Source: an uncultured bacterium (GTDB lineage: Bacteria; Electryoneota; RPQS01). From it: DNA of 64,000 nucleotides. This document shows, piece after piece, positions 1,415 to 57,411 of the stretch; the first letter of the stretch is position 1, and each line of letters begins with the position of its first letter. The notes beneath the pieces were generated by a model. That model was not told the origin of the DNA. It saw only the letters and a list, made by a program, of their open reading frames with translations, and did not search any database. The position numbers and the translations under genes were made by a program. The DNA lies in the NCBI GenBank assembly GCA_963735175.1, contig CAVTJX010000017.1, forward strand, positions 1,793 through 65,792, in the 5' to 3' direction.

Positions 1415-2363
1415 CTATCCGGGGCAGCAGGCCGGCGAAGCGTCTGGCGGTATTCGGCCGACCAGCCGTTCCACGACCGCGGACGCCGGCAGGATCTCAT
1501 GGATCATGCCCGCGCCCATCCCCGCTTCAAATTGACCTTCCTCCCAATCGCCTTCAAAGATGCCGCGCCGTTCGCGTTTCGCATCCAATAGCTGGCGCAA
1601 CTCTTCCGCGCTCGCCCCGCGCCGTTCCGCTTCCACGGCCTGAAGCGCGAACGGATTCTTCAGCATACGCGTGGGGCCGATGGCCTTCAGCGAGAGCACG
1701 GTGGCGGCTTCCCCCGCTTCGACTACCGCCTGCTTGTAACGATCCGATGCTGAAGACTCGACAGTAGCGGCGAAGCGCGTGCCGATCTGCACGCCGTCCG
1801 CGCCGAGCGCCATCGCCGCCGCAATCTGCCGGCCGTTGACAATACCGCCCGCCGCCAGCACGGGAATGCTCACCGCTTCACGCACCTGCGGCACCAGCAC
1901 GAACGTCGGGATCTCGTCCACGCCGTTGTGCCCGCCCGCTTCCGTGCCCTCGCAGACGACGGCGTCGACGCCGCGCTCGGCGGCTTTCTGCGCAAAGTTT
2001 GGCCGAGGGCACGACATGGACGACGATGACGCCCGCGGCTTTCAGCATTGCCGTGTAGACCGCCGGGTTGCCCGCCGCCGTGAAGACGATGCGCACGCCT
2101 TCTTCCACACAGACGTCGATGAGCTGCGCCGCATCGCCCCGCAAGAGCGGCACATTGACGCCGAAGGGAGTATCGCCGAGGGCGGCGCGCGCCTTGATGA
2201 TGTGCTCGCGCAGTAAATCCGGTTTCATTGATCCCGAGCCGATCAGGCCCAGCGCGCCCGCGCGGCTCACGGCGACACAGAGTTTCCATCCCGAGGTCCA
2301 GACCATGCCGGCCTGTACAATGGGATAGCGAATGCTGAACAGTTCCGTGACGCGGCTATGCAT
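1415..2363 (-). CDS. Nitronate monooxygenase / FabK-like FMN oxidoreductase, frame-broken near 1994-2000
   Basis: ORFs 1878..2426 and 1415..2017 together give MHSRVTELFSIRYPIVQAGM...VVPSAKL|AQKAAERGVDAVVCEGTEAGGH...GADGVQIGTRF. One +1 break lies at AAA-CTT-T-GCG. Confidence 0.7.
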
Positions 2364-2452
2364 CTTGCCCCATCCAAGCGCGACAGCCGCACGAAGGTTG
2401 CTTCGCGCGGCCGGCAGTGATTTCACGAAGCGTGTGGCCGCGCGTCAAAGAC

Positions 2453-3053
2453 TCAGTGCCCCCGCGCCAGTTTTACGAGATCGATCCGCCCCACTGGGGC
2501 GCCTTCGAGTTCTTCGGGATATTGCGGATGCGTCGTCAGGGCCGAGTTACGCAACAGGAAATCGCGGTCGATGTAGAACTCACCACGTTGATAGCCGCCC
2601 AGCTCCAGATAGCCCGTGTCCATGCGGATCGCGTCCTCGGGACAGGCCTCGACGCACAGACCGCAGTAACAGCAGCGCAGCAGGTCGATCTCGAAAGCGA
2701 CCGGATATTTTTCGATGCGGCCATCTTCGGTCTCGCCAGCGGTGATGTAAATGCAGCGGTCGGGGCAGGCGGTCTCGCACATCATACAGGCGACGCAGCG
2801 CGGCGCGCCGTCGGGCCGGAGCATCAGGCGGTGCAGGCCGCGCCAGCGGGGCGAGATCGGACGGCGCTCTTCAGGGTATTGAATCGTTACCGCCGGCGGC
2901 TTAGTCTTCATCCCCAACGCGCGGCCCGTGTGACGCGCGAGGTTGACGAAGAAGTGGCGGCTGGTGATGACCAGACCCTTCCAGAGTTCCGGATAGTAGG
3001 TCTTCTGCCAGAAGGGTGAGTTCGACCCGGCGGACCGGTTTGACGTCGATCAT
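2453..3053 (-). CDS. nuoI: NADH-quinone oxidoreductase subunit I, +1 break near 3011
   Basis: Two 4Fe-4S motifs (CVACMMCETACP, CCYCGLCVEACP). The N-terminus MIDVKPVRRVELTL is in another frame and joins WQKTYYPELWKGLVITSRHFF at ACC-CTT-C-TGG. Confidence 0.85.
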
Positions 3054-3079
3054 ATCAGCAAGTTTTCCGTTGCATCGTC

Positions 3080-4182
3080 TTAAGAGATGAGCATGAGGAC
3101 GAGGCCCGTGACGCCAATGTTCACGAGGGCGACGGGCATCGCCTCGCGCCACGAGGCGCGCATGAGCTGGTCGTAGCGGAAGCGCGGGTAGGTCCAGCGG
3201 ATCTGCATTTGCAGCCACATCAGCGCCGCGACCTTAAAGCCGAAGGCCAACATGCGCAGCGCGACTACGAGCCACTCGGTCACGGGCAGTAGGCGCCGCC
3301 GGGAAAATGAAAGCCGGAGTTGCCGCCCATCTCCACCGCGCCGTAAAGGTAGGGGATCTGGTAGCCGCCGAAGAAGATGGTCACGATGATGCCCGCGAGC
3401 ACGACGATTTCGGCGAATTCGCCGAGGAAGAACATGCCCCAGCGCATGCCGGAGTATTCGGTGGCAAAGCCGATGATTTCCGATTCGCCCTCGGGCAGAT
3501 CGAAGGGTGCGCGTTTGGTTTCGGCCATCGCCGCAGGTAAAAACAGCAGGAAAGCAATGGGCTGCACGATGATGCCCCACTTGGGCAGCCAGCCCCACAG
3601 CAGTTCGTTCTGCGCGGCCACCATCACCGACGGGTTCAGTGTGTGGAAGACGAGCACCGGGCCGATCAGCGCGAGGCCGAGCACGACCTCGTAGGAGATC
3701 ATCTGCGCCCCGCCGCGCATACCGCCCAACAGCGAGTATTTATTATTGGACGCCCAACCCGCGAGGATGGTTCCGTAAACGCCGAGACCCGTAAACGCCA
3801 GAATAAAGAGCACGCCAATGTCGAGGTCAAGGATCTGGAGCTTGATCAGCCGCTCGCCAATTTGAATGGGCGGGCCGAAAGGCAGCACGGCAAAGAGCAG
3901 GAAGACCGGCAGCATGGCAAAGATCGGGGCCAGCGCCCAAACCACTCGCAACGCCTTGGGAGGAATGAAGTCCTCCTTGAAGATCAACTTGATGGCGTCG
4001 GCAAAGGAATTGATGAGACCCCACAAGCGGATGCCGAGAATCGCGGCTCGGTTGGCGCCGATGCGGTCGGAGATCAGCGCGGCCTGCTTGCGCTCGACCC
4101 ACGTGAGGATCAGCGCGCCGGTCATGATACCGCCGAAGACGACCGCGATCTTGGCGAGGATGATGGCGAGATCAATTAACAT
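3080..4182 (-). CDS. nuoH: NADH-quinone oxidoreductase subunit H, -1 break near 3290 (C-run)
   Basis: ORF 3280..4182 (GWASNNKYSLLGGMRGGAQMISYEV...) continues in ORF 3080..3598 (LLPVTEWLVVALRMLAFGFKVAALMWLQMQIRWTYPRFRYDQLM). Confidence 0.85.
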
Positions 4183-4961: not shown

Positions 4962-6643
4962 TCAGTAAGCGGGCAGGGGATTGGCCGACTGCACTTTACG
5001 ATACGGGGGTTCGGCGACGCCGGTCAACATTTTGCCGGAGAAGCCAAGACCTTCCCAGGTGAGGCCTTTGAAAAATGAACTCTGGGTACCGATGGCGTCG
5101 AAGACGTCGGCAGCAGTGGAGTAATTCCAGACGAAGCCAAGTTGGCCGGCCAGATCGCGCCAGACAGTCCATTCGGGAACTGCCATCTGCAGGGGAGGGA
5201 ACACCTGCTGCGCGCGCTGCACGCGGCCCTGGAAATTGGCGTAGGTCCCGTCGTACTCCGTCCACACGGCCAGCGGGATCACATCGTCCGCGATCGCTGT
5301 GAAGGCGTTCTCGTGCGTGCCCAGATAGAGTATGTAATCACAACGCTGGTCGAGCTTCTGCAGGTCTTTCGCCGACAGCGTCTTCGTAAGATCGTGGCCG
5401 ACAACGATCAGCACGTCGTATTCGCCTTCAATCGCCGCCTTCAGAATATCGTCGCCGGAGCTGCCGCCGCTGACCGTCGCGCCCAGTTCAAGGGCGAGGG
5501 CCCCGCGGCGGTTGGGCGTCAAGTCAGCGCGCATGAGGATCTCGTCTTCCCTGCCCGTTTCTTCGGGGCCGCAGGCGATGTCGATGGCGTCGACTCTGAG
5601 GCTCTCGACGAACAGGCGGCGGAGCAAAAAGAGGTCTTCGTTGGTGGAGTGCGGCGAAGCGAGGACGGCGATCGCGCCTCCCCCCTGCTTCGACATTGCG
5701 GCCTTGATTTTCGCGGCGGCGCGTTCGATGACCTGCGCGACCATCAGCGGGCTGCCGGTGCTTCCGGCTTTGGCGCGCGGGGCGAGCAGACGGTCGGGCG
5801 AGTCGACACGATGATAGCTATAGCGGCCCCGGTCGCAGAGCCACCATTCGTTGACGAGGCGGTTATAGCGCGGTTTGAGACGTTGAATACGGCGCTCGGG
5901 AGCCTTATAGGCGCGTTCCCGCTCCCAATCCACATGAATGTTACAGCCACGCGAACAGCCGGTGCAAATCGACGGAGCGCGCTTCAAATACCAGACGCGG
6001 CGCTTGAAGCGGAAATCCTTGTCGGTCAGCGCGCCGACGGGGCAGAGATCAACGACATTTCCTGCGTAATCGTTGGCAAGCTGCGTGCCGGGGACGCTCA
6101 TCGAGTTCGGCCTCGCCGCCGTGGCCGAAGATACCCAGTTCGTCGACGCCCGCAATCTCACGGCAGAAGCGCACGCAGCGCGAACAGAGCACACAGCGTT
6201 CGCTGTCCAGCACGACGGTGGGACCGACGTCGTAGACTTTGTGCTTGTGGCGCTTTTCGGCGAGGTCGACGCGGCTGTCGTGCAGGCCGTAACGCAGGTA
6301 GTAATTCTGCAGATCGCACTCGCCGGCGTCGTCGCAGATCGGGCAATCGAGCGGGTGATTCTGGAGCAGGAATTCGAGCGCGGAACTCTGTCGCTGGCGA
6401 ATCTCCGCGGTGTCGAAGAAACACCTTCATGCCGTCGACGGCGGTGGTATTGCAGCCGATGACCACGCCGCGGCGCCCGTTCTGCTCGACCTCGACCTGG
6501 CACATGCGGCAAGAGCCGACGATGGCGAGGCCGGGATGATAGCAGTAATGGGGGATCTCGATATTGAGGCGTTTCGCCGCTTCAATCAGATTGGTTCCGG
6601 CGGGAACCTCAACCGGCTTGGAATTTATTTCGATATACGGCAT
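4962..6643 (-). CDS. nuoG: NADH-quinone oxidoreductase subunit G (short form), two +1 breaks (~6415, ~6102)
   Basis: MPYIEINSKPVEVPAGTNLIEAAKRLNIEIPHYCYHPGLAIVGSCRMCQVEV...KVFL | DTAEIRQRQSSALEFLLQNHPLDCPICDDAGECDLQ...CVLCSRCVRFC...GEAEL | MSVPGTQLANDYAGNVVDLCPVGALT... read across three frames. Confidence 0.85.
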
Positions 6644-6706
6644 AGCATGAAGTTTCGACAGGGGACAACGGGGCGCGCCGTCCGAGGGCGTTTCTGACCG
6701 GTTCGA

Positions 6707-8210
6707 TTACAAATAATACGTATGCGCGACGGACCACAACAGCAACGCATTCACCGCCGCGAACAGCAGCAGGATCGCGTGCAGTGTCCAGCGGCGTGAC
6801 GCGCGCGGCGGGGTCCAGCCGCGCAGCAGCAGGAATACAAGCAGACCGAAGCCGGCGGTGGCCGCGAAACGCGCAAGCAACGCCTGATACTGGACGAGCG
6901 GGCGATGGAAACCGCCCCAGCGCACGACCCGTTCCACCGCACCGGCCGCCAGAGTATCCGCCACGAAACTGAAACACACAAGCAGCAAGCCGAGCACGAC
7001 ACCCGTCAGCAGTCGCCACCGCGGGCGCGGCGAACACGGCGCGGCATCCGCCGCGCGCAGCGCCCATACACCCCAAGCAAGGGTGCCGGCGACAAACGGG
7101 AACAGCAAACGACTCGAAAGATTTTGCGACGATTCCCGGCCGACCGTGAGCCAGGCGAGGAAGAAGAGCACGCCACCCAGCAGATATCCGCCGGCCACTC
7201 GCCAGGGAAACTCCATCTTGCTCCGCCGGGCGCCGTAAACGGTGAATGTGAGCGCTGTCAGGAGCAATCCAAGATACAGGCCGTAGTAGAAACCGGGCAG
7301 AAAGATCGAGGCCACGCCCGGCAGTCCCGCCGCGCTGAAGAACGCCCATTGTGCGCTCTTGGCAGTGACGATCACCCACGACTTCACGACAGGGAGCAGC
7401 CCCTGAGCCAGCGTAACCACACGATCCGGCTGCTGCGATTCAAGGACAGCGAGGTGCAGCGAGCGGTACATCGCCCAGCCACTCAACAGCAGTGGAACCG
7501 CAACGATCACCGCGAACCGCCGCCAGCCGCCCACGCGCCGCAGTTGCGGCAACAGCGCGGCGCAGAGCGCAATCCAGAAGAAAAACCACGGTCATCTTCG
7601 TCAGGATCGCCAACGCGAGCACGAATGCCGCGCGGGTCAGATCGGCCAGTCCCGGCTTATTCTGAGCGCGGGCGAGATACAGAAACGCCAGCGCGGACAG
7701 CGCCGCCGCAGGCATATCATTGCCTACGACTCCACCCATGAACGTGGTTTGGGCCGCGAAAGCCCACACACCCGTAACGAGCAGCGACAAGGCCTCCATC
7801 CCACCCAGCAGGATCACCAGACCGCGCCAGAGCCACCAGACCGTCAGGGCCAGCAACAGCGCGTTGGGTACGCGCAATAAATGGAATAGAGCGAGGTCAC
7901 GGGGTGAGGCGGCGGCGCGAATCGCCGAATTGTCGAACAGGTTGGCCCGGCCCGGGACAGAAGATTGATCGAACCGTGGATTCGGTGTCCAGACGATATC
8001 GGACAGGGAAAAGCCGGTGGCTGAGAGGATCACGCTGAGGGCAGCATAGTAGAGCGGCGCCTGATGCCCTTCCCATAGGCTGTCCGCGATAATATCCGCT
8101 TGCGCCGGCAGGTGGTGGTGGTCACGCAGGAACTCGGCGTATCGAATGTGCGCGCCCTCATCAGGGGCTTCACCGACGGGCACCAACAGCCCCCACAACA
8201 GTGCCAGCAA
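6707..8210 (-). CDS. GT-C fold (ArnT/PMT-like, GT39/83-type) integral membrane glycosyltransferase-like protein, +1 break near 7577; N-terminus uncertain (may extend to ~8248)
   Basis: Multi-TM protein with the first-loop motif GEAPDEGAHIRYAEFL. ORF 7440..8210 continues in ORF 6707..7552 at TTT-CTT-C-TGG. It lies between nuoF and nuoG. Confidence 0.55.
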
Positions 8211-8262
8211 ACCGGCGAGGGCGGCGTAAGCAACCGCGGCTCTTCCACGGGTGGCCGTGAAG

Positions 8263-9524
8263 CTACTCCTTCACCAGAGCTTCGAACTCATGGCGGAATT
8301 TCTTGATATAGCTCTTCGTCGGCCAGGCCACAGCTTGCCCGAGGGCGCAAATGGTCTTGCCGTCGATGTTATCCGCCAGTTCAAACAGATCGTCGAGATC
8401 GCGGCGGCGGCCGCGCCCGGACGCGATGCGCGTGGCGATACGCAACAGCCAGCCGGTGCCTTCGCGGCAGGGAGTACACTGGCCGCAGCTTTCGTGGGCG
8501 TAGAAGCGCGTCATCCAGACCATGAGCTTGGGGATGGAAACGCTGTCGTCGAGCACCATCACGGCGGCGGAGCCGAGCATCGAGCCCGCCGCGGAGACGG
8601 ATTCGAAATCGAGTTTCAGGCCTTCACATTCGGCGGCGGTGAGGATGTGCAAGGAAGAACCGCCGGGGATCACGGCTTTGAGCTTGCGGCCTTCCGCGAT
8701 GCCGCCGCCGTGCTCGTAGATAAGGGCGTGCAGCGGCGTGCCCATGGCCAGTTCGTAGACGCCGGGATTCTTCACGCAGCCGGAAAGCGAAAACAGGCCG
8801 GTGCCGCCGTTCTTGGGCGATCCCAGCGCGGCAAAGGCGTCGGCGCCCATTTCGAGGACGCGCGGCACGAAGGCAAGGGTTTCGATATTGTTGACGACCG
8901 TGGGCTTGCCCCAGAAGGCCGACGGCGGCGGGATAGAACGGCGGCTTAAGGCGCGGCCAGCCCTTCTTCCCTTCCAGCGATTCGATGAGCGCCGTTTCCT
9001 CGCCACAGATGTATTGACCCGCGCCGGTGGCCGTGTGGACCTGGCAGGACCAGCCGCTGCCGAAGAATGTTCTCGCCCCAGAAGCCTTTGGCTTTCGCGT
9101 CGGCGATGGCCTTCTCGACACTTCCATGGGATAGAAATATTCGCCGCGGACGTAGACGTAAACGCATTCCGCCTGCACGGCCCAGGCGCAGATCAGCGCG
9201 CCTTCGAGCATCAGGTGCGGGTCGTATTCGAAGAATCAGGCGGTCCTTGCAGGTGCCCGGTTCGGATTCGTCGCCATTGACGCAGACGTAGCGGGGGAAC
9301 TTGTCCTTGGGAATGAAGCCCCACTTGGCGCCGGCGAAGAAGCCCGCACCGCCGTGGCCGCGCAGCCCGGAGGCCTTGACGAGTGTGGTGACTTCCTCCG
9401 GCTTCACCTTCAGGGCGCGCTTGAACATTTCGTAGGCGCCGCGCTGCATGGCGCCGTCGATGGTGGCCTGGCCGGGCGCGGCAAAGTTGCGCAAGACAAG
9501 CCGTACAGTTCCGTTCGCGCTCAT
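8263..9524 (-). CDS. nuoF: NADH-quinone oxidoreductase subunit F, four frame changes (~9230 +1, ~9110 -1, ~9062 +1, ~8914 +1)
   Basis: GLRGHGGAGFFAGAKW, GDESEPGTCKDRLIL|EYDPHLMLEGALI, RGEYFYP..SVEKAIADAKAKGFWGENIL|GSGWSCQVHTATGAGQYICGEETALIESLEGKKGWPRLKPPFYPAAVGL|WGKPTVVNNIETL...ESCGQCTPCREGT, assembled from three track ORFs. Confidence 0.9.
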
Positions 9525-10067
9525 CGCGGCGCTCCTTCGACGGCGCCCACGTTGCCCAGCAGCGGCGTGGGTTCGTCGGGCGTCACGGGCACTCCCTTGC
9601 GGAAGCCGTAGAGGATGCGGTCAAGCTTTCCACTGTAGCTGGTAATACTGGTCCTCGTTGACGAGCATCATCGGCGCCCACGCGCAGCCGCCGAGGCACT
9701 CGACATAGCGCAGCGTGAAGAGGCCGTCGGTCGTCGTGCCGCCGTTATTAATGCCGAGCTTCTTCTTCCAGATGCGCCTGCAAATTCTCCGCGCCGAAGA
9801 GGCGGCGGAGATATTGTGGCAGAGCTGAATGACGTACTTGCCCACCGGGCCGGTGTGGAACATCGAATAGAAGGTGAGCACCTCGCGCACCTTGACGGCG
9901 CTGACGCCCACCGTCTCGGCCAGCCAGCGTTCGGTCTCGGGACTGATGAAGCCGAGTTCGCGCTGGGTTTCGAACATCAGCGGCACAAGCGCCGCCTGGC
10001 GGTGGTCCGCCGGGAAGCGCCGGATAATGTCGTCGGCTTTGCGCGTGAGCGATTCGGGAATTGGCAT
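9521..10067 (-). CDS. nuoE: NADH-quinone oxidoreductase subunit E, compensating frameshift pair (~9790/~9765) and a +1 break near 9635
   Basis: MPIPESLTRKADDIIRRFP...VIQLCHNIS..GAENLQAHLE..KKLGINNGGTTTDGLFTLRYVECLGGCAWAPMMLVNEDQYYQL|SGKLDRILYGFRKG...GAPR*. The stop overlaps the nuoF ATG (ATGA). Confidence 0.8.
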
Positions 10068-10118: not shown

Positions 10119-10188
10119 CGCCGAGCCGGGTTAAGCGGCCAGTGATCTCGAATCACGGTCACGAATTCAGCTCCGCGCAACCCGGCCG
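10119..10188. repeat. Left repeat pair: CGCCGAGCCGGGTTAAGCGG (10119..10138) and CCGCGCAACCCGGCCG (10173..10188)
   Basis: The outer copy is the exact reverse complement of 10748..10767. The inner copy is the exact reverse complement of 10699..10714. Outer and inner cores are also imperfect inverted repeats of each other (core GCCGGGTTRMGCGG). Confidence 0.85.
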
Positions 10189-10212
10189 AAACCCAGGGGT
10201 TCCACCAAGATG

Positions 10213-10738
10213 CTATCCGCAGTTGAATAGAACCGGTGGTGGTAACTGGACCAACGATAGAGTTCCGGGATCCGGCACAAGGCCCCGGCGCACCGGATTA
10301 TTCGCCATGTAATTTAAGCGTGTCGCCGCGGCATGTCCACCGGGGATGGCAACGGCGTCGTATCTTGCATTCCACAGCGGGCGTCCAGGATAATTCGGCA
10401 ATACCAGGTGTTTCGACGTTTCACGTTTGAACTCAGCCAGGAAGTCCGAAGACCGTACGGTCCGCTTCGTCCTGCAGCACCAGGGCATGCAGATGATCAG
10501 GCATCAGGACATAACCGAAGCACAAGAGCCGATAGCGCTGGCGATAGAACTCGAATCGGCGAAGGATGTACCCGCAAATCACGGTCCGAAACAAACCAAG
10601 TGCCACGGATTCGCGCAACCATAGTAATATACTGAAGGCTTCCGGGGCAATCCAACCGCTGGTGGCGTCGGCGCATGTTTCCCTCCGGATGCAGATTACG
10701 GCCGGGTTGCGCGGATTGGTGTTCGCAGTGGACGGCAA
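10213..10738 (-). CDS. IS200/IS605-family Y1 (HUH) transposase-like protein, REP-associated tyrosine transposase (RAYT)-like; +1 break ~10440-10480
   Basis: YRQRYRLLCFGYVLMPDHLHALV (HUH motif) in ORF 10433..10738 continues as SDFLAEFKRETSKHL...PLWNARYDAVAI...RLNYMANNPVRRGLV (catalytic-Tyr/NPV motif) in ORF 10213..10488. Confidence 0.7.
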
Positions 10739-10767
10739 GGTGGTCGTCCGCTTAACCCGGCTCGGCG
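10699..10767. repeat. Right repeat pair: CGGCCGGGTTGCGCGG (10699..10714) and CCGCTTAACCCGGCTCGGCG (10748..10767)
   Basis: Mirror image of the left pair, read directly from the sequence. Confidence 0.85.
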
Positions 10768-10775: not shown

Positions 10776-12086
10776 TCAGTGATCGAGCTCGCCGCCGATC
10801 ATGTTGACGGAACCGAATGTGGGGACGATGTCGGCGACCATGTAGCCATTGATCTGTTCGGGGAGTGCCGCCACGAAATTGTAACACGGCGGACGCACGC
10901 GGCAGCGCCACGGGCGGTCGTTGGCGCCGTCGGTGGAATCGGCGTTCGGGTAGCTGACGACATAGAAACCGAGCTTCGCCGTTGCCGCCTTCGACGGCGA
11001 CATAGACCTCGCCCTCGGGGACGCGGATGCCGTGGCCGCTCATGATCGAGCTTGAAGTGATTCATCAAGCCCTCGATGTTGCCGTAGGTGTCCTTCTTGG
11101 CGGGCAACACGACGCGCTTGTCGCTGGAGGAGACGGGGCCGCCGGGAATGCGGGCCACGCACTGCTCGAAGAATGCGGCAGGACTGCTCCATCTCTTCCA
11201 GGCGAACAAGGTAGCGGTCCATCACGTCGCCGTTATGGCCGACGGGGACGCTCCAGTCGAGCTGGTCGTAAACAAGATAGGGGAAATCCTTGCGCACGTC
11301 GTAGGCGACGCCGGTGGAGCGCAGCAGCGGGCCGGTCCAGCCCCAGGCGATGGCGCGGTCGGCACTCATCTTGCCAATGCCTTGCGTGCGTTCGACGAAG
11401 ATGCGGTTGTTGGTGAGCAGGATGTCGCATTCGGCGAGGATTTCGCGGGTCTCCTTCACCGTCCACAGCACCTTGTCGAGCCAGCCTTCGCGCAGATCGA
11501 AGGGCATGCCGCCGACGCGGGTGGCGTTGGTCGTGACGCGCGCGCCGCAGTAATCTTCGAGCAGTTCGTAATAGTATTCGCGGGCCTTGATCAGATAGAG
11601 GAAGACCGTGAACGCGCCGAGTTCCATGGCCTGCGCGCCAACGCAAGTGAGGTGGTCGGCGATGCGCGAGACCTCGCAGAGCATAGTGCGGATGTACTGG
11701 CCGCGGGGCGGAATGGTGACGCCCAGCAGTTTTTCCACGGCCATGCAGTAGCCGACGTTGTTGATGACGGGTGAGACGTAATTCAAGCGGTCGGTATAGA
11801 TGATCGCCTGGTTCCACGTGCAGTCTTCGCTGTGTTTTTCGAAGGCGCGGTGCAGGTAGCCGATTTCGACTTCGGAATCCACGACGAGTTCACCCTGCAG
11901 CCGCGTGACGATACGGATAATGCCGTGCATCGCCGGATGCGAGGGGCCGATATTCAGCAGCATGTCCTGCGTCTGGAACTCGGGCTCTTCGGAGGGAATC
12001 GCCGTGCCGGTGTCGTAGGGCGCGATGACGGGCGGCGGTGAATCGGTGGTGCGAGTGGTATCGTTCATGGATGCCGGTTTCGTCAC
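10776..12086 (-). CDS. nuoD: NADH-quinone oxidoreductase subunit D, three +1 breaks (~11168, ~11047, ~10985)
   Basis: LLNIGPSHPAMHGIIRIV...LEEMEQSCRIL|EQCVARIPGGPV...NIEGLMNHFKL|IMSGHGIRVPEGEVYVAVEGGNGE|LGFYVVS...PTFGSVNMIGGELDH*. The GTG start overlaps the nuoC stop. Confidence 0.9.
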
Positions 12087-12567
12087 TGGTCCTTGGGGCC
12101 GATCAGGGGCTGGCGGCGCGTTCGCGGGTAGTCCTTGCGCAGCGGGTGGCCCTGGAATTCTTCGTAGAGCAGAATGCGCGGAGATCGGGGTGGCCGGTGA
12201 AGCGGATGCCCATCATGTCCCACGCTTCGCGCTCGAGCCAGTTGGCGATGGGCCAGAGCGGCGTGAGGCTGGGGACTTCAGGATGCAGCTCGTCGAAGGG
12301 CACCTTCACCCGCAACCGCGTGTGAGTCGTCAGGTTCATGAACTGGTAGACGATTTCGAAGCGGGGCTTGCGCGGCTGGTAATCGACCGCGCTCAAATCC
12401 ACAAGGAAGTTGTAGCCGAGGTCGTCCCGCAGCAGCTGGGCGATGTCGAAAATGCGCGCGCCGTCAACGATCAGGGTTTTGTCGCCGTGCTGGGCGTGCC
12501 AGTCGAACACCGCGCCGGGAAAGCGCTTGTCGATGGCGACGTGTTCGGGGAAGCGCTCGTCGCTCAC
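12083..12567 (-). CDS. nuoC: NADH-quinone oxidoreductase subunit C, -1 break near 12180
   Basis: VSDERFPEHVAIDKRFPGAVFDW...LTPLWPIANWLEREAWDMMGIRFTGHPDLR then RILLYEEFQGHPLRKDYP...*. GTGA overlaps at both ends. Confidence 0.85.
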
Positions 12568-13031
12568 TGCGTCACCTGCTTGGAATTCTGGATCAGATCC
12601 TGCAGCTTGAGCAGGCCGTCGAGGACGGCTTCGGGGCGTGGCGGGCAGCCGGCGATATAGATGTCGACGGGGATAATCAGGTCGATGCCCTGCACCGTGG
12701 AATAGTCGTCGTAGGGTCCACCACAACTTGCGCAGCCGCCGAAGGCGATCACCCATTTCGGATCGGCCATCTGTTCGTAGACGGTCTTCATCACCGGCGC
12801 GAGTTTCTGGCTGACGGTGCCCACCACCCAGAGCACGTCAGACTGACGCGGGCTGAAGCGGGGAAAAGCGGCGCCAAAGCGGTCGATATCGTAATGGCTG
12901 CAGGCGGTGGACATGAATTCCATGCCGCAGCAGGCCGTCACAAACGGATACTGGAAGAGCGAATATTTGCGTGCCCAGCCGAGAATCTTGTCGAACCGCG
13001 TGGTCATGGCGGTTCCCTGGAGGGCGGCCAT
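12564..13031 (-). CDS. nuoB: NADH-quinone oxidoreductase subunit B
   Basis: MAALQGTAMTTRFDKILGWARKYSLFQYPFVTACCGMEFM...GGCASCGGPY...AGCPPRPE. Internal ATG of ORF 12564..13172. Confidence 0.9.
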   Translation of the reverse strand: MAALQGTAMTTRFDKILGWARKYSLFQYPFVTACCGMEFMSTACSHYDIDRFGAAFPRFSPRQSDVLWVVGTVSQKLAPVMKTVYEQMADPKWVIAFGGCASCGGPYDDYSTVQGIDLIIPVDIYIAGCPPRPEAVLDGLLKLQDLIQNSKQVTQ

Positions 13032-14496: not shown

Positions 14497-16513
14497 TCAC
14501 CGAGTCGGTCGGTGCCGGCGCCGGACTCCCCCTCGCTCAGGGACCTTTTTGGGTGGGGGCTTCAGGCTGAAAGTCGCCTGCCGTTTCTGCAATTGCCCAG
14601 CACTGCGGAACGCGTCCCGGACGAGCGCATAGTCGGACGCGGGCAGCACATCCTGTTTGATCTCCACGATCTGTTCCCAATTCCAGCTATGGGCGTTCAG
14701 GCGGTTGCTGATTTCAATGTGCACATAGGGATTGTCGATGATGAGCGGCGAAGGCAGAGCAGCCAACGCATACCCCTCGGGCAAGACGACCGTGACCAGG
14801 GTTTCACAGCGGGATCGTGGCGGCATCCGGAGGGGGTACTGAATCGTGGTCCACGTTGTGTCGAAAGCCAGCCGTCCGAAGTTAAAGGGCGTTTCGGGAA
14901 TTCCAACGATCAGCCGGGAGCTGTCGCGGCGGGCATATTCAGGCGCGGCGAAGCGCACCTGCACAGCCACCGGGATGGCGAGATCCGTGAGGTCAGAAAT
15001 CGAATAGGATGCCACCTGCGCCGTGGGCGCAAAGCGGGCCAGCGCGGCATGAATGAACTCGGCGCGGCGGTCGTCGCCAAAGCCGGCGAATGTCGCCCGC
15101 GTTTCCGCGGCCTTGTCGCCTTGCGGTTCACACAGAATGAATCCCGAAAGTTCCCCGTTGGCCGAAAGGGAAACACGGATTTCCGTGCGCGCGCCACGCG
15201 CAGCGGGATTGCCGGGCGAAATCTCCTGCACGAGGGGCGCGCCGCCGACGAGCAGACAGGCTTTGCCATAGGTCATCGCGAAAGGCAGCACCGTCGGCGG
15301 ATAATTCACGGCGGCGGGATCGATCCAGAGCGTATCTTCGCTCGTGGGAACCGCCAGGACAATACGGGAGAATTGTTCGAGCAGCGGCAGTTCAGAAGAA
15401 CGGCAGTAGGCGGCCCGGAACCAGCACCGGGATCGGGCCGAAGCCGTAACCCCGCAGCAGTGCGGTGAGCAACACGGCTTTGTCCTGCGGATCGGCGTAG
15501 CGTTCACGGACAATCCAGTCCGCCGTATGCAAGGCGGCATCGACACGGCCCGCGGTGCGATTCACCGGGCGCACATTCTGCTGCACCCAGCGCGTGGCGT
15601 TCATGAGCGCGGGAATCCCCTGCAGCGTGGGCGGTGTACCGGCCATGAAACTGTCCACGGCCGCTAGACTGGAATCTACTTTATCCCAGAAGAGATTGTT
15701 GAAGGCGGTGCCGAGCGCTTCCCAGTCGGGGCAGGTTGTCCAGACAAGACGGGGGAGAATGAACGCTGCATCGACGACCGGCGGAGACACATCCAAAGCC
15801 GGACAGTTGAGCCGCGTCCAGGTGTAAACGGAATGGTGATTGCTCGCCACAACGAGCGGTTTGAGATCGCTGTTCGTAAGTTCCCAGCGGAGCCGGAACG
15901 GCTCGACGACATCGACCGTGACGGTTTTCTCAAGAATCGGATCCGGACCGCCGAAGAGCGCGATCCCGCCGGGCGGGACTGCGGCGCGACCTCCGGCGAC
16001 GGGAAGCGGTTCCAAGCGATAGGCGAAATAGACAGCGTCTCCGGAATCCACAGCGGTGAAGCTGACCGTGAGTTGCCGGAACTGTGAATAGCCGGCGATC
16101 CATTTCACTTCCGGAGCGGGCGCATCGACGAAAGCGGTTGAGTCGAGCGTAATCCAACGGCCATCCGCTTTCTGAATCCGCGCGGAGTCGATGACCACGG
16201 CGTGAGTATTTTCCTGATAACCGATGACCTGCTCCCGATAGTGTTCCCTACCCTCCGCAGAGAGGATCCGGCAGCGGAATTCGCGGCGGGTGTGCATGCG
16301 TCCGCTGGCGTCGATGGTGAGATGTTCGCGGTCGAATTCGATCACAGCCGAGGGCGACGGCTGGTCAGCTGGCCGCGAGACGGCGCCGTTCAGGCTGTCC
16401 AGAGGTTCCGCAGCCGCTCGCATTGACAGTGTCAACGACCATAACAGAAGCAGTCCGGCCAGGGAGCGGCGGCCATGATGCATGAAACCGTGTTGGAGAA
16501 TCGGGAGCGGCAT
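14497..16513 (-). CDS. DUF3857 / transglutaminase-like / DUF3858-type secreted protein, +1 break near 15393-15400
   Basis: ORF 15392..16513 (signal peptide, then AVIEFDREHLTID...) continues in ORF 14497..15546 (ELPLLEQFSRIVLAVPTSEDTLWIDPAAVNYP...). Architecture recalled from family knowledge, not searched. Confidence 0.5.
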
Positions 16514-20758: not shown

Positions 20759-20784
20759 CGGCAGAGGACAAACAGCCATCGGTT

Positions 20785-24288: not shown

Positions 24289-24301
24289 CCGCGAGCATCC
24301 G

Positions 24302-36893: not shown

Positions 36894-36982
36894 AGGGATA
36901 AAGTACACATTTCGCGCCTGAAATTCAACGATCCGAGGTTTTTCATGTCGGGCGGGAAAGTTGATTTATCCTGAGCGGGCGC

Positions 36983-37011: not shown

Positions 37012-37066
37012 TAGCTCTTTACACGCCCCGAATTCCGGCTTTTCGATCCACCCCACCCTTCCCCCC

Positions 37067-40007: not shown

Positions 40008-40050
40008 GCGGCACGATCGAACACTGAACTCAAGGACAGCGAGGCTTCCT

Positions 40051-40969
40051 TTGAAATTCCTGGCAACGCTTTTGTTTTTGATTGTGCCGCTGATCGCGGC
40101 CGCGCAACTGGTCTCCAATCCGAATCCTCCCGTGCCCGCCGCGCAGGCTGTGGGCGGCGCTTACACTGCCGCGGCGACCGGCGCCGAGGCGCTCTACTGG
40201 AATCCCTCGGGACTTGCCTACGGCAAGGGATCCGAGGGCCGCTTTGCCTACCAGCAGATCTGGGGCGCGAGTTTCCTGTCGCACCTTGCGGCCAGCGGCT
40301 ACACGACGCTGCCGCGCGGATTCGGCGGCGTGGCCCTCAGCGTGCAGAACCTGGGAACGCGGGACGGCGGATCCACCCTGGCCAACGAAAACGAAATCGC
40401 CCTGGGGCACGGCTTGCTGCTGCAGCGTGACATCCACTCCTCGCTGGCTTTCGGCTATACCCTGAAGCTGATCCAGTACAGCCTCGGCGAGTCCGTGGCC
40501 GACGCCAACGGCAACAGTCTGCATCTCGGCAACGCCAACGCGTTGGGTATCGATGTGGGCGCGACGGCGCAGCTCTGGGATCGCTTCCGGTTGGGCGGCG
40601 CTTTCAAGAACATCAACAATCCACAGATGGGCGGCAGCGGGCACGAGCGGGATTTGCCGCGGATGCTGTCCGCCGGCGTCGCCTATTCGCCGTATTACGC
40701 CGTACGCACGACCTTCGACCTGGAACGGATTCTTCTACGGCGAGACACAGTTCAAGGCCGGCATCAACGCGCAAGTGGTGGAACCCCTGGACCTGCGCCT
40801 CGGCGTGATCACCAATCCCAATAGTTTTACGGCGGGCTTTGGCTTCCACTGGCGGGAATTGGTACTGGACTATGCCTTCATGTATCACCCGGTGCTCAGC
40901 CCTTCGCATCTTGTCGGTATCGGCTTTAACCTTGACCAATCCGTTGCAGAGATCGGGAAGGCCAAATGA
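40051..40969 (+). CDS. PorV/PorQ-like outer-membrane beta-barrel protein, +1 break at 40735 (ATT-CTT-C-TAC)
   Basis: TTG start after AAGGA. Signal peptide KFLATLLFLIVPLIAAAQ; AVGGAYTAAATGAEALYWNPSGLAY signature. Continues in ORF 40553..40969 (YGETQFKAGINAQV...). Confidence 0.55.
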
Positions 40970-43522
40970 AGCGAGTGGCGCTGCTACTAATCGGTCTGGC
41001 GCTCGTGTGCCTGCGTGCAGACGCGGCGGAGGTGTTCGAACTGAACACCGCGACGCTGGATCAGCTCCATACGCTGCCGATCACCGATGCCCAGGCGGAT
41101 ATCATCTGGCAGCATTTGTTGTATGAAGGCCCCTTCGAATCGATCTACGAAGTGGGCGATCTACCCGGCTTTGACGCGCAGACGCTGGCCGCCCTGCGCG
41201 AGCGGATTCGCGTAAATTCGCCCCGCCCCGTCGACGCGCGCATCGAACGCATCGAAGACGCGTATTACCGCATCGAAACGCTGGGCACGGAAGAAGGCAC
41301 CAATGTCGGCCTGGTGGACGAATGGATCGACCGCCTGATGGAGCCCTTGAACGTCAACGAAGCGTCGCTGGACGAGCTGATGGACCTGCAGAATGTGTCG
41401 CCCGCGGACGCGGTGGCGATCTATCAGGGGGTGCAGCGGCAGGGCGGCATTCGCGGCGCGCGCGATCTGCGGGCGGTTCCCGGTCTTTCCGACTGGGGCT
41501 ATCGCAACGCGCGTAATTATCTCGGCTATGACAGCACGCGCCACGCCAACCGGCTGCACGGAACCTACACTTTCCGCGCCTACAACACGCCGTTCTTCGC
41601 CGACGAAGAACTGGCGATTGATCCGAGCGCACTGATCGATCCCCGGCCCGACGTCAGCCACAAACTGCGCATGACGTACGGCACAGTGAAAGGCGGAGTA
41701 CTGTGGCATCGCAACCTGGGCGAAGAAACGTTTTCCGCCAGCGGCACCGCTAATATTCCGGAATTGAAGTGGTTCGCCGGAATCGAGAAGCGCCGTCTCG
41801 GTCCCATTCAATTTGACCGGACTTACATCGGCAGTTATCAGGTCTCCTTCGGGCAGGGCCTGGTGATGGAAAGCGGCGACTATTTCAGTCCGCGCTATTC
41901 GGGTTTCGGCTTCGACAAGCGCATCACGGGCGTCGCCCCGGATCTTTCGCGCGCTCAGGAACTGACGATGCGCGGCGCGGCCACCGAGGCGCGCTACGGC
42001 AAGTTCAAGGCGGTGGGATTTTTCTCGGCGGACAAGAAAGACGCGGTCTTGAATCCCGACGGCTCGCTGAACCGCCTGATCACCCTCGTCCCCCGCACCG
42101 ATCAGGATATTTACCCCTCCTATCAGAAGCTGGAAAACGGCGACACGGTATTCGTGCCGGCGTATGCCGGCAGGCAGTCGATGCTGAACGCGGTGACGGA
42201 AGTCGGTCTCGGCGGCGAGTTGGCCTTCCGCCCGTGGGCCGGCGCCTCGCTGGGTTTTGCCGCAACGCAGTTCATGTACAATAAACCGCTTAAGCCGGAT
42301 CTTGGGCAAACGTACCGCTTTGACGCGAAGACCCGCTCGGGCGCCGACACGGCGGTGGAACTGTATGCCGTGATCGACCCGCAGGAGCGCGACGAGATCG
42401 CTGACAACGATCTCAATTCCGAGATCCGGACCGCTTACCGCTCCACTGGCACCTCATCGCTGTGGTCCGGAGCGAATTCTGTGCGGCGGATTTACGGCTT
42501 CAGTCTCATGAGCGTGCTGAACAACTACACGTTTCAGGCCGAATACGGTGAGATGGACAACGGCGGCGGCTTTCTGAAGCAGGGCGACGAGCCGCACGCG
42601 CTGGTGACGTCGCTGCACGCGCAGTGGAATTCGCTGACGGCACTGGCCGTCTACCGCGATTATTCCATCGACTACGACAATCCCTACTGCCGCGGTTTCT
42701 CCAACTACGCGCGCTACAACGGCTCAACCTACGAAGACGAGTTCTATCTTGCGCAACCGGTGTTCGCGCAGTTAGAGCGCAACGCGGCGGGACCGCAAGC
42801 CGAGCGCGGCGTCTACTTCTTCGACTCGCTATCAGGTTTCGCGGCCTCTGACCGTTGACGCCGAGGCGGACAACTGGACGCGCGTCGCCGATCAGGCGGA
42901 TTATTACCGCTGGGTGGCGAAAATCGCCTACCGGCCCGTCTGGCCGATCGTACTCCGTATCCGGCAGAAGTTGCAGGGACGCTGGAACTACGACTTTGAG
43001 AAAGAAACCGGATTCAAGACGTACGAGAATCGCATCAACCTTGAATTCCGCCTGTCGCGCTACGACAATATCGACTTCCTTTACGCCACCGGCTACACGA
43101 GCTTTACGCCCCGGCCACGACTCGGCGGTCAAGTCGATCCGAACGGCCTCTCGCCCCTGGATGCGCAGGGCGCTTCGCCGACAGAGGCGCTGGGCGTGCA
43201 GATGACGCACAACTTTTCGCCCTACTTCCGCGTGCGCGGCGCGTGGTTGATCTACGACGGTTTCTTCTGGAACTTCGAAGACAGCGACTTTGCCGTGCTC
43301 GACGGACGCTCGTCTCGCTGGTGGGTGTCGATTTCGAACCGGCTTTCCGGTTCGCTGGCATTGCGCGCTAAGCTGACCGGCGACAGTGCTTATCCCGTTA
43401 CGTGGGTGCAGGCCCGCGACAACAACGCCTATCCGACGACAATTCCGGGCCGCGAATATACGGGCGACAATGTGACGAAAAACGCGTTGTCATTCCGCAT
43501 CCAGCTCGATTACCTGTTTTGA
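40966..43522 (+). CDS. Outer-membrane beta-barrel protein with two N-terminal ComEA-like helix-hairpin-helix domains, +1 break ~42815-42830
   Basis: LNTATLDQLHTLPITDAQADIIWQHLLYEGPFESIYEVGDLPGF and LNVNEASLDELMDLQNVSPADAVAIYQG...LRAVPGL, followed by ~650 aa of beta-rich sequence ending ...SFRIQLDYLF*. ATGA overlap with the upstream gene. Confidence 0.6.
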
Positions 43523-52950: not shown

Positions 52951-53884
52951 CTAAGGAGTCGGATAACTGCGCGACCGGTTGGCTGTGCGGCATATTCGCA
53001 CTTGGAACGGCGGCCCAAACTGCTGCGCGGCGTGCATCGCCTGGGTCCGCTCCACGAATAATCCGAAAATTGTCGACCCACTGCCTGAGAGCATAGAGAC
53101 CCCCGCTCCCAGATCAAGCAACTTTTGCTTTACCCAGCCGAAGTTCTGAATATTTTTCTAAAACTATAGATTCCAAATCGTTACGGAAATTCTTCCAACT
53201 CCATGGGCCATTGACCCTGTCTGTTGGACGAGACTTTAAAATAACACTTTTATCATCACCTGTCAAGGGGAATCGTCCCGCTGAGTAGGCCCAGGCCGTG
53301 CTTACACCAAACGGGGGGATCACCAGCACCACGTCACCGCTGGCACAACCTTCCAGTAGTTCCAACTGATCCCCCCGCCCGGTACCGCGCGCCAGCCCTC
53401 CATAGAGGAAAAAGGCACAATCAGAGCCAATTTCAGCGGCAATCGGGTGCAATCGTCCCCGCGGCCAATCCAGCCCCCAGAGCCGCGACAGGCCCATCAG
53501 CGCGATGGCAGCATCCGACGAGCCCCCGCCGAGTCCTCCGCCGAGGGGGATTGCCTTCTCAAGGACCACACGTCCCGCCAGTGGCACTCCGGCCGCACCG
53601 GACAAACGCTGGGCCGCCTGCACAATGAGGTTTGACGGTCCCGTATCCAGCGCCGCACCGTGGATTTCCAGGCTCCACGCAGCCGCCGGATGGAATTCCA
53701 GCCGGTCGGTCAACGAAATTTCCTGAAACAGCGTGTCCAGATCGTGATAGCCGTCGGACCGTTTGCCCAGGACCCGCAGGTCGAGGTTGATTTTCGCCGG
53801 GGCGAGCAACGCAAAACCACCGCCGGGCAGCGGTTCGCAGTCGGGATAGTCTGAGTCGTCGGGAGCGTGACAGGTGGCGCGCAT
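52951..53884 (-). CDS. ispE: 4-diphosphocytidyl-2-C-methyl-D-erythritol kinase, +1 break ~53125-53140
   Basis: LLAPAKINLDLRVLGKRSDGYHDL...KAIPLGGGLGGGSSDAA...NDLE... The C-terminal LDLGAGVSMLSGSGSTIFGLF is found only after a frame change. Confidence 0.85.
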
Positions 53885-53925
53885 GGGCGAGGGAATGCCG
53901 GGAAGGCGAACGGATTCCTGTAGAT

Positions 53926-56267
53926 TTAGAGGAATCCGTTCGCGCCGCAAGGGTCGGAGTCAACAGGAAGGACGAAAGGCCAGGGTACGAATCTCAGGTG
54001 ACTTCCTGATAAGTCGGTGTTCACCGGGCGTTGCTTTCGTTTCGGCTTCTTTTCCGAGCCGTAGTAGTAATAGTACTGGTAGTAATGGAAGTAGTAATAG
54101 TACGAGCCGTAAATCCGCTTGATGTCGAGCCCGTTTAAGACCACTCCCAGAATGCCGGCGCGGACATTTTTCAAGAGCGCCAGCGCGCGCGAAACTTCCT
54201 TGCGGTTGACCGTGCCCGAACTGACGACGAGGATCGTGCCGTCGACGCGCGTCGCCAGCACGGCGGCGTCGGTGACCGCGACCACCGGCGGACTGTCGAG
54301 GATCACGAGGTCGTACCGTGAGCGCGCTTCTTCGATAAAGTTCCGCATGCGCTCCGAAGCGACGAGTTCCGCCGGATTCGGCGGAATGTCGCCCGCGGTG
54401 ATAATGTCGAATTTGTCGACTTCCGTCGGCTTGATCACGTCGTCGAACGCCAGCGATCCGATGAGCACGTTGGTCAGGCCGTAGGTCCGGTCCATCGAGA
54501 AGAAATTGTGCAGCGACGGCCGGCGCAGATCGCTGTCCACCAGCAGCACCCGCGAGCCCGCCTGGGCCAGCGTGATCGCGAGATTAATCGCCGTCGTCGA
54601 CTTGCCTTCCTTCGAGGTCGTCGACGTCATCAGGAGCACGTGCTTCGGGTGGTCGATGTCGGCAAACTGAATATTCGTGCGCAGGCTGCGATACGCTTCG
54701 CTGACGGGCGACTTGGGGGAGAAGCGGGTGATCATCTTCGCTTCCACCCGGTGGAGATCGGCGTCGGTAAACTGCTTGCCCTGTTTCTTCAGCCGGCGGA
54801 TGATCTGTTCCGTATGCACGAGGGGAATCGTGCCCAGCAGCGTCAGTCCCATGCGCTCGATGTCGTCGCCGGTTTTGACGGTGTCGTCCAGGACTTCGAT
54901 GAAGAAGGCGATACCCACGCCCACGGCCAGGCCGAAGAGGATGCCGAGCAGAATATTCAGTTTCTTCTTGGGCCGTACGGGATCGACGGGCGGTTTGGCG
55001 ACGTCCACGATCTGCACTCCGGCCGACTTGCCCGCTTCCGTGATCCGCGACTCCTCATACTTGTCATTCAGCATGAGGTAGAGCTTTTCGTTCAGCTCGC
55101 GGTCGCGCGTCAGGCGTGCCAGCACCAGTGTCTGTTGCGGCAGGCGCTCGAGATTGAAATCCTGGTTTTCCATCACCTGCGCGCAGAGCTTCGACCTTGG
55201 CCGCCAGGGCCTTGACTTCAACGTCGGTAATCAGGAGCTGGTCAAACAACTGCTGGCTGGTGCGCAGCGGATCCACCGTCGACGCGCCGCCGCTCGCCAC
55301 CTTCCGCACTTCCTCGATCAGCTTGCCCTTGATCGTCTCGACTTCCTTTTCGAGGGAAGCCACGGTGACATCGGTTCCCGGACCGGGATTGGCCATCAGG
55401 CTGGCGATGCGCGTCTGCTGGGCGGCGATTTCCTTCTGCATCGCGTCGATCAACGGGCTTGTCGCGTTGGTCACATCCTCGACCATCGTGCCCTTGGTCT
55501 CGGCGAGCTGCTTGCGGAGGTGTTCCTGCTTGCGGATCTGCGCGTTCAGCTCGGTCTGGGTGGTGTTATAGAGGGCGTGGAACTCGGCCGACTGCTGGAC
55601 CATGTTCTCCGTTTCCACGTCGAGAGCCGTTACGCCCTCCTGCTCCTTGTACGTCCGTTCCACGTCCTCCGACTGCGAAAGCTGCTGGCGGACGGTTTCG
55701 AGCTGTTGCTCGAGGAACTGGCGGATATCGGAAACCTCGCCGCGCGCCGCATGCAGGCAGTAGCGGTAATATTGCTCCGCGATGGCGTTGGCGAGAAAGG
55801 CGGCTTCAAAGGGCGAGTGCGCGGTCGTGCTGACCTTCAGAACGTCGGTGTCCTTCAGCAGACTCACGCCGGTGTTCTCGCGCAGTGCGGTCACGCGCTG
55901 ATCGAACGTCACCGGCTTGCCCGTCGGGATCGGTTTCGCGCATGAGTTCGAGTTCGTTGCGATAGGGCGACTCGACCAGGGCGCGGATCACATCTTCGGC
56001 GATGCGGCGGCTTTGCAGGATCTCGATCGCGTTCAGGTTGCGCGATTTGAGAATCGGTTCGGGTTTCTCGTTCAGCAACGTGGTTTCCACGCGGTCGCGA
56101 TCGAGAATCAGGATACTCGCCGTGGAAACGTATTCCGGCCGCGCACGGTAGGTGAGGAACGTGACGGCTCCCACCACGGCCAGAAACGCGGTCACGATGA
56201 TCCAGCGGCCGTGGAAGAGAATGCGGAGAAATTCCGAAAGTTGATGCGAAGTATCTTTGGTTTCCAA
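53926..56267 (-). CDS. Polysaccharide-export tyrosine autokinase (Wzc/GumC-type BY-kinase), two +1 breaks (~55915, ~55175)
   Basis: Wzz-type N-terminal TM/periplasmic coiled-coil domain. Walker A SKEGKSTTAINLA, LVDSDLRRP, LVILDSPPV. C-terminal Tyr cluster YGSYYYYFHYYQYYYYYG. Confidence 0.8.
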
Positions 56268-56294
56268 ATCCGCCCCTTGCGTTACCTTGCGACT

Positions 56295-57411
56295 TCAGCC
56301 CGGACGCCGCGCGTCCGGCTTCGTCACCGTCTCGGATTCCGTCTCGAGCCGATTCGCTCCGCGAAACGTCAGCCCCAGCTTCCAGAAAAAGATTAATCCC
56401 AGCACCGTGAGCGGGATATAGTTCAGCGCGTGCATCAAAATGGCGAATCCCGCCGCCCGGTCGCCGGGCACTTGAAACAGACTCAAGCCCAGCACGGCCA
56501 TCCCGTGATATGTGCCAACCGCGCCAGGCGCGCCGGGAATCGAAAAGCCGATCGTGGTGATCATCAGTGTAACCAGAACCGCGCCAACCGGGTTCCGGTC
56601 AATTAACACGAAGCCCGAATCCATGAAACCCAGCGACTGCAGAATATAATAGTCCATCCCGCCGTAAAGCGCCCAAAGGAGCAGTGAACTGACGCTCAGG
56701 GCCAGCATATGCTCCGAGCGGCCCAGGACGACTAAGCCCGACGTAAACTTCTCCATCAACGCCGCCCCGGCATGGGCTAGACGCGGCGGCAACACGCTGA
56801 GCATTCGCCGGACCATTGCCATACTGCGCTCACGATCCAGGACCAGCCAAATCAGAAAGGCCATGATCGCAAGCCCCACGACGGCCAGCGTCCAGGCCGC
56901 CGCCTGCATCGCTCGCGGCAAGGGAAAGAGGATCAGCGCGGCCGCGAGGTAGGGCAGCATGGAAATCAGATCAGCCATGCGTTCCAAGACGATACTGCCG
57001 AACGCGGCGCTGCGCGAGAGCCCCGACATTTCGTAGACCACGTGTGCGCGGTAGATCTCCCCCATCCGCAGCGGCAGCACATTGTTGGCGAAATAGCCGA
57101 TGGACATGGCGCTGAACACGTTACCGAAACTGATCGGCACGAGCGGCGTCAGCATGATCCGCCAGCGCCACGCCCGCAGGACCAGCGCCGCCAGGAACAG
57201 CACCAGCGCCATGAGCACCGACACCCAACGGGCGGTTGCCAGTACATGCCCGAGGTGCGAAAGATCAAACCGCATATGACCGAAAAACGCTTCGCCCAGC
57301 CCCATCTCGCCATGAAGCAGCGAACCGACGTGCGGAATAAAAAACGTCAGGTAGAGAAAGATCAGACTCAGCCCGAAAGCTGATCACCAGGCGAATCCCA
57401 TGCTTCGACAT
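56295..57411 (-). CDS. Lysylphosphatidylglycerol-synthase-TM-like (UPF0104, flippase-like) membrane protein, +1 break ~57375
   Basis: MSKHGIRLVISF|GLSLIFLYLTFFIPHVG... then ORF 56295..57305 with about 8 TM segments and the RWRIML...GYFANNVLPLRMGE signature. Confidence 0.55.

Follow-up and report, generated by a model that had tools for sequence, protein, structure and literature searches.

Origin of clustered, insertion-biased frame breaks in conserved genes of an uncultured Electryoneota bacterium: a probable case of long-read consensus error

Does a bacterial genome whose conserved genes are repeatedly split by changes of reading frame belong to a decaying organism, to one that decodes its messages in an unusual way, or to an ordinary organism whose sequence was reconstructed with errors? 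The question is raised by a stretch of 64,000 nucleotides, below called the window, which occupies positions 1,793 to 65,792 of contig CAVTJX010000017.1 in the assembly GCA_963735175.1 of an uncultured Electryoneota bacterium (G000:C17:1793-65792). Frames of the nuo genes, asd, selD, alaS and many of their neighbours are interrupted there, and the initial annotation of this DNA counted about 40 such breaks, strongly biased toward one extra base and clustered in space. The data presented here indicate that the breaks are very probably errors in the consensus of a long-read metagenome-assembled genome (MAG), overwhelmingly spurious one-base insertions, and that the organism's own genes are intact. 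The frame breaks are not a real biological feature.

The assembly comprises 3.30 Mb in 19 contigs, with a GC content of about 60%, an estimated completeness of 82.8% and an estimated contamination of 3%. Its 23S rRNA gene is complete and internal to a contig (G000:C16:126943-129860). Nineteen contigs, a complete internal 23S gene and a completeness of 82.8% form together the profile that long-read MAGs typically show when insertions and deletions (indels) have been left uncorrected. A search with the alanyl-tRNA synthetase (AlaRS) encoded by alaS returned matches which, where they carry a source name, belong mostly to candidate division KSB1 or Calditrichota.

Number, direction and distribution of the frame breaks

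The whole window is collinear with contig 3 of a related genome (G002:C3) and with stretches of four other relatives (G010, G003, G001 and G009), and this synteny supplies five independent sets of orthologous proteins of approximately 55–85% identity. They were used as references for our own protein-to-DNA dynamic programme, which permits frame changes of one and two bases (BLOSUM62, frameshift penalty −14, stop penalty −12). Each set was run against the window, and an event was kept if at least two references agreed on it within 15 nt. Events are designated as '+1' if one extra base is present, '-1' if one base is missing, and '+2' if two bases are extra or if one is missing and a residue is lost.

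In this way 66 frame breaks were registered in the window: 65 with at least two references and one at the N-terminus of alaS. The breaks noticed initially are thus present in the deposited sequence, but their total had been set too low, and the undercount came from two genes: a slt-like gene with about 17 breaks, for which at least 7 had been claimed, and a gene for an OB-fold protein with about 14–15, for which the claim was at least 8. The strong bias toward extra bases held (48 '+1' events against 11 '-1' and 7 '+2'), and all five '-1' sites named earlier were recovered (3287, 9117, 9802, 12179 and 33998). Clustering is equally evident, since 38 of the 66 events fall within the 7.5 kb between 32.5 and 40 kb, while the other 56.5 kb contain 28. 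The blocks described as clean (12.5–15.3, 16.8–20.2, 25.6–32.5, 43.5–52.9 and 58–63.8 kb) indeed have no break backed by more than one reference.

At every break site the orthologues in all five relatives are single open frames. Applied in identical form, as a negative control, to the 80-kb syntenic stretches in G010, G001 and G009, the method gave 0, 6 and 4 events, respectively, and several of these appear as closely spaced groups of mixed direction resembling alignment noise. Existence, direction and distribution of the breaks, together with their absence in the relatives, are matters of direct observation.

A genome-wide scan, in which the proteins of G002:C3 (636 kb) served as references against all contigs of the assembly, covered 299 orthologous genes and 338 kb of aligned DNA. 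It detected 255 frame changes (203 '+1', 36 '-1' and 16 '+2'), a density of 0.75 per kb. They occur on all the larger contigs and affect 131 of the 299 genes (44%), with insertions exceeding deletions about 5:1. The counts per gene are overdispersed relative to the Poisson expectation (chi-square 498 with 298 degrees of freedom, p = 3e-12); at least 7 breaks were registered in 4 genes, while only 0.3 such genes were expected. The pattern is thus unlike uniform random error, as was stated initially. Non-uniformity of the breaks, however, does not exclude error: the alternative implied by that statement, real pseudogenes or recoding, is unsupported, and a non-uniform assembly error fits.

The same scan characterises the condition of the broken genes. 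Beside the 255 frameshifts only 14 in-frame stops were found among 112,699 aligned codons, and the one that was inspected (C17:62252) lies upstream of the gene start, in a terminal part of an alignment in which the stop-to-stop reference frame overruns the gene. Conservation was estimated as the frame-corrected identity of a gene to G010 divided by the identity between G002 and G010 for the same gene. This ratio reached 1.17 in asd, 1.08 in selD, 1.21 in the slt-like and 0.99 in the OB-fold gene, and it showed no correlation with the density of breaks (Spearman rho −0.03). Once their frames are corrected, broken genes are conserved as well as clean ones. With essentially no nonsense codons alongside the breaks and no excess of protein divergence, both seen directly in the alignments, the earlier doubt that the affected genes are true pseudogenes appears well founded. 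Among the essential genes breaks are repeated in nuoF (4), nuoE (3), nuoD (3), asd (3) and selD (4), and alaS has 1.

Sequence context of the extra bases

At eleven breaks of the window the preceding codon is an in-frame CTT with C as the next base (1994, 6415, 7577, 8914, 9062, 9230, 11168, 23124, 25536, 40735 and 53137), and at these sites the relatives have a conserved leucine. CUU is well known as a classical codon for +1 slippage, which operates in prfB of Escherichia coli (CUU-UGA-C) and in the yeast element Ty1 (CUU-AGG-C). One might assume, then, that programmed +1 decoding, through a shift of the ribosome at CUU-C or a tRNA reading a four-base codon, keeps the genes expressed in the presence of the extra base. 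However, the same four bases also arise out of frame (TTC[T]TCT at 15397, GTC[T]TCG at 10450 and TTC[T]TCG at 42820), and their reverse complement arises on the sense strand (GAG[A]AGC at 21618, GAAGAA[G]AAG at 9762 and GAA[G]CTC at 10974).

Genome-wide, CTTC or GAAG overlaps 41 of the 198 '+1' events tested, which is 20.7% against a background of 4.7% (p = 2e-15). CTTC on the sense strand accounts for 24 events, or 0.47% of the 5,099 CTC sites, and GAAG on the sense strand for 19 events, or 0.50% of the 3,765 GAG sites, so that both orientations are struck at the same rate per site. Distribution of the CTTC events between the three reading frames (17:2:5) is proportional to the abundance of CTC in them (65:9:26%). 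The motif consequently arises when the T of CTC (or the A of GAG) is doubled, and it is blind to the coding strand and to the frame; this blindness, like the contexts themselves, is read directly from the deposited bases. Because this 60%-GC genome makes abundant use of CTC (Leu) and GAG (Glu) as in-frame codons, the error mostly looks like in-frame CTT + C or GAA + G. Duplication of T or A at CTC and GAG is about eight times as frequent as the per-base average.

The in-frame CTT/C form is found in only 17 of the 203 '+1' breaks (about 8%), while the frame continues undisturbed across 171 in-frame CTT-C sites of conserved genes. Most contexts are unrelated to it. Weaker ones include the conversion of CTG to CTTG (CAG to CAAG), TCGA, and a weaker class of the C-G-A or T-C-G type. 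Insertions that create CpG (CA to CGA) were tried as a further signature and set aside, their enrichment being weak (33% against 25%, p = 0.015). Around 43 oriented CTTC/GAAG sites no conserved flanking positions were found that would extend the motif. Compared with that of G002, the homopolymer spectrum is slightly enriched in long runs rather than depleted of them.

ARAGORN predicted 52 tRNA genes in the whole genome, all of them with three-base anticodons, and none with a four-base anticodon suitable for the motif. The tRNA-Leu set is composed of taa, cag (two copies), tag, caa and gag, the last being the normal tRNA-Leu(gag). A global quadruplet code, CGGN or any other, was rejected as well, CGG being a common ordinary codon; CTT is ordinary too.

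Origin of the frame breaks

The error process that we favour would have two components. The first would be a systematic, context-dependent background, amounting to about 0.5 breaks per kb, with CTC to CTTC and GAG to GAAG as its strongest contexts; these sparser, motif-linked breaks may represent systematic errors that survive at moderate read depth. The second would consist of kilobase-scale blocks of very poor consensus that have no motif. Genes with at least 6 breaks indeed contain no enriched k-mer. Dense stretches accumulate approximately one indel per 50–150 nt (32.9–39.7 kb and, less markedly, the nuo region), and between 38.14 and 38.74 kb the frame changes 12–13 times in 600 nt, which corresponds to about 2% of indels and comes near the error rate of raw reads. 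The dense blocks are a few kb long, about the size of a long read, and protein divergence in them is not raised. Their simplest reading is a local dip in long-read depth, with very few reads, or a stretch missed by polishing. We infer that local read depth causes the dense blocks and that the real DNA lacks the extra bases.

Gene-truncating consensus indels whose frequency depends on coverage are documented in Nanopore assemblies and MAGs, near-finished quality being reached only at about 40-fold coverage (PMC9262707). Frame-breaking indels of long-read assemblies are the subject of proovframe (10.1101/2021.08.23.457338), and tools of this type exist because long-read consensus indels truncate genes. 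As for the particular contexts, the duplications at CTC and GAG and the weaker C-G-A or T-C-G class might reflect chemically modified bases of this KSB1 lineage that mislead the basecaller or the polisher, in which case the map of errors would serve as an indirect read-out of a methylation motif; we regard this as improbable. A bolder version of the same idea, in which some insertions are real and tolerated by means of +1 shifting at CUU-C, is far less likely.

Several observations weigh against consensus error. The approximately 5:1 excess of insertions is unlike the classical Nanopore profile of homopolymer deletions, and the slightly inflated homopolymer spectrum likewise departs from the classical Nanopore R9 pattern. 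Within 38121–38737, 4–6 consecutive changes in the '-1' direction, spaced by 49–67 nt, are followed by about 8 consecutive '+1' changes, and such an order is not expected from independent errors with an 80% share of '+1'. No tandem repeat that could cause the spaced breaks was found at 38.1–38.4 kb; the only explanation that we can offer is that one or two noisy reads may have supplied this stretch. Non-coding DNA, represented by the 23S rRNA gene, gives no clear independent confirmation. Its Rfam score is as good as those of the relatives. It has four one-base insertions of its own (alignment columns 720, 913, 1287 and 1581), compared with one each in two relatives, which suggests the same error process, but at 91% identity they could be natural. 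Finally, an assembly of the same species was sought by a protein search with alaS, where the best non-self AlaRS was 86% identical, and two metagenome scans for the alaS and nuoD sites, with patterns allowing the extra base to be present or absent, gave no match.

Another kind of artefact would be a mixed-strain consensus, that is a mosaic of co-assembled strains with indels at the places where their reads were merged, the dense blocks being strain-variable regions, as the initial annotation proposed to consider. The clustering of breaks in kilobase-scale blocks and the contamination estimate of 3% agree with it. Merged strains should, however, leave substitutions and chimeric segments rather than almost pure one-base insertions, and the CTC/GAG signature has the appearance of a context effect of the chemistry or the basecaller. 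The dense blocks also include the conserved core genes asd and selD, and their amino-acid divergence is not raised. We therefore consider strain mixing very unlikely; being a sub-variant of assembly artefact, it would leave the biological verdict unchanged.

Real pseudogenisation, with the frameshifts as fixed mutations of a decaying lineage, has in its favour that the breaks do stand in the deposited consensus and that they accumulate in particular genes (about 17 in the slt-like and 15 in the OB-fold gene). Decay of bacterial pseudogenes is known for its deletion bias and for producing nonsense as well as frameshift lesions. The genome studied here demonstrates the opposite bias, about 5:1 in favour of insertions, and has essentially no nonsense codons beside its 255 frameshifts, and the broken genes have accumulated no excess of amino-acid divergence. 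Moreover, breaks in 44% of conserved genes, nuo, asd and alaS among them, are incompatible with a viable 3.3-Mb genome that is fully syntenic with its relatives. A decaying lineage is thus most unlikely to be the source of the breaks.

As to programmed +1 decoding, the conserved leucine before the eleven breaks of the window and the 17 of the whole genome is outweighed by a motif blind to strand and frame, by the 171 sites read through and by the ordinary tRNAs, which leave recoding unsupported; the orthologous sites are unbroken in five relatives, the densely broken genes lack the motif, the '-1' and '+2' events would need yet other mechanisms, and we find this explanation scarcely conceivable.

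Individual genes, consequences and comparison with known systems

The positions of the breaks are collected in Table 1. Near the start of alaS the sequence reads ATG ACT TCT TCC GAA ATT CGC CGC TTG TTT CTT [C] GAA TTC TTC CGC, and with the bracketed base skipped the product matches the closest AlaRS (P0002) from residue 1 onward, its N-terminus showing 92% identity. In the OB-fold gene every segment of 15–25 residues between the breaks aligns clearly to the references. The '-1' site of selD at 33998 is a run of A that is short by one base. The gene broken at 23124 had been named pgpA, a name that appears mistaken: its Pfam match is Polyketide_cyc2 (SRPBCC fold) and pgpA is not evident. The membrane glycosyltransferase gene at 6644..8262 matches Pfam PMT_2 weakly (E 1.3e-5, slightly under the curated cut-off).

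Two side observations concern selenium and tmRNA. The alignment of selD begins directly after an in-frame TGA at 34586-34588 on the reverse strand; the genome encodes tRNA-SeC, ARAGORN having found two tRNA-SeC(tca) genes in it. The same programme found no tmRNA gene in the whole genome; its region may be absent from the assembly (completeness 83%), or the gene may be hidden by an indel.

Table 1. Frame changes in genes of the window and in densely broken conserved genes elsewhere in the genome. Square brackets enclose the extra base, angle brackets mark a site that is one base short.
Gene	Position	Strand	Frame changes	References and domain matches
nitronate-monooxygenase-like	1415..2402	-	+1 at 1994 (AAA CTT [T] GCG)	5/5 references; Pfam NMO
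nuoH	3083..4182	-	-1 at 3287 (TAC <TG> CCC)	5/5 references
nuoG	4962..6643	-	+1 at 6102 (GAA CTC [G] ATG), ~6415 (TTT CTT [C] GAC)	5/5 references
GT-C/PMT_2-like membrane glycosyltransferase	6644..8262	-	+1 at 7577 (TTT CTT [C] TGG)	3 references
nuoF	8263..9569	-	+1 at 8914, 9062, 9230 (each NNN CTT [C]); -1 at 9117	5/5 references
nuoE	9548..10067	-	-1 at 9802; then +1 at 9762 (GAA GAA [G] AAG, antisense CTTC), 9635	5/5 references
RAYT/IS200-like, between nuoD and nuoE	10161..10751	-	+1 at 10281, 10450 (GTC [T] TCG), 10577	one homologue only (G001), weaker
nuoD	10779..12086	-	+1 at 10974 (GAA [G] CTC), 11047 (AAG CTC [G] ATC), 11168 (ATT CTT [C] GAG)	5/5 references
nuoC	12086..12756	-	-1 at 12179	2 references extend to that gene end
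DUF3857-domain gene	14497..16513	-	+1 at 15397 (CCG TTC [T] TCT, CTTC out of frame)	5/5 references; Pfam
cinA	20718..22023	+	+1 at 21618 (GAG [A] AGC, sense GAAG)	6/6 references; Pfam MoCF_biosynth, CinA_KH
Polyketide_cyc2/SRPBCC-like	22641..23198	+	+1 at 23124 (CGG CTT [C] TGG)	5 references; Pfam
conserved gene, family not assigned	24203..24927	+	+1 at ~24500, ~24637	4-5 references
alaS	25504..28161	+	+1 at 25533-25536 (TTT CTT [C] GAA); removes first 11 codons, remainder intact	
asd	32572..33597	-	+1 at 32944, ~33026, ~33415	6/6 references; Pfam Semialdhyde_dhC
selD	33603..34630	-	+1 at 33903, 33928, 34411; -1 at 33998 (GCG GCG <GA> ACT)	4-5 references; Pfam AIRS
slt-like	34687..36790	-	~17 breaks (34853-36740), mostly +1, varied contexts, no motif	2-5 references each
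OB-fold secreted protein	36965..40007	+	~14-15 breaks: first +1 at 37643, 37998; 4-6 changes in -1 direction at 38121-38359; then ~8 +1 at 38358-38737; one near 39644-39701; locally ~1 indel per 50 nt	
PorV-like neighbour	39991..40966	+	+1 at ~40735 (ATT CTT [C] TAC)	4 references
helix-hairpin-helix gene	40966..43522	+	+1 at 42820 (TAC TTC [T] TCG)	4 references; Pfam HHH_3
GHMP-kinase, ispE-like	52969..53950	-	+1 at ~53137 (GAA CTT [C] GGC)	4 references; Pfam GHMP_kinases_N
Wzc-like chain-length-determinant/tyrosine-kinase (GNVR + P-loop)	53926..56264	-	+1 at 55180, ~55916	4 references; Pfam
one conserved gene, outside the window	C15:48934-51606		14 frame changes	
one conserved gene, outside the window	C19:87884-91028		7 frame changes	
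one conserved gene, outside the window	C17:192953-197778		12 frame changes	
outside the window	C15:235218-238159		8 frame changes	negative alignment score, under cut-off; excluded from the tally of 255

The value of this finding is practical rather than biological. The genome is a species representative (one per species, GTDB release 232), yet about 44% of its conserved genes are split, and gene calls, counts of pseudogenes, completeness estimates and pathway reconstructions made from it will be wrong unless the frames are corrected. Complex I or asd, for instance, could be falsely declared missing, and AlaRS taken for a truncated protein. The error that turns CTC into CTTC, combined with codon usage, mimics a CUU +1 shift site, which should serve as a warning for screens of recoding in long-read MAGs.

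Among the known systems, the closest likeness is to the consensus indels of long-read assemblies (Nanopore and PacBio continuous long reads). There, as here, one-base indels split conserved genes throughout an assembly and are not accompanied by nonsense codons, their density varies between kilobase-scale blocks (a variation that we attribute here to read depth), and an assembly that is otherwise contiguous receives a lower completeness estimate. Consensus indels that fragment gene calls are what the IDEEL test and polishing with short reads address. In the textbook, a Nanopore error shortens a homopolymer by deletion. The errors described here differ in being biased toward insertions, about 5:1, and in lying mostly outside long homopolymers, with CTC to CTTC as their strongest context. 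Genomes rich in interrupted genes, such as those of Mycobacterium leprae and Sodalis glossinidius, are similar in the large share of genes affected, but here nonsense codons are all but lacking, insertions prevail, evolution of the broken genes is not relaxed, and essential genes carry multiple breaks. With +1 frameshifting of prfB and Ty1 the breaks share a subset of sites placed right after an in-frame CTT (Leu), with one base to be skipped. In contrast to those systems, the sites are not kept in orthologues, have no recognisable stimulator and coexist with 171 places that are read through; they occur at an equal rate in antisense and out of frame, and would have to number thousands in the genome instead of one or two.

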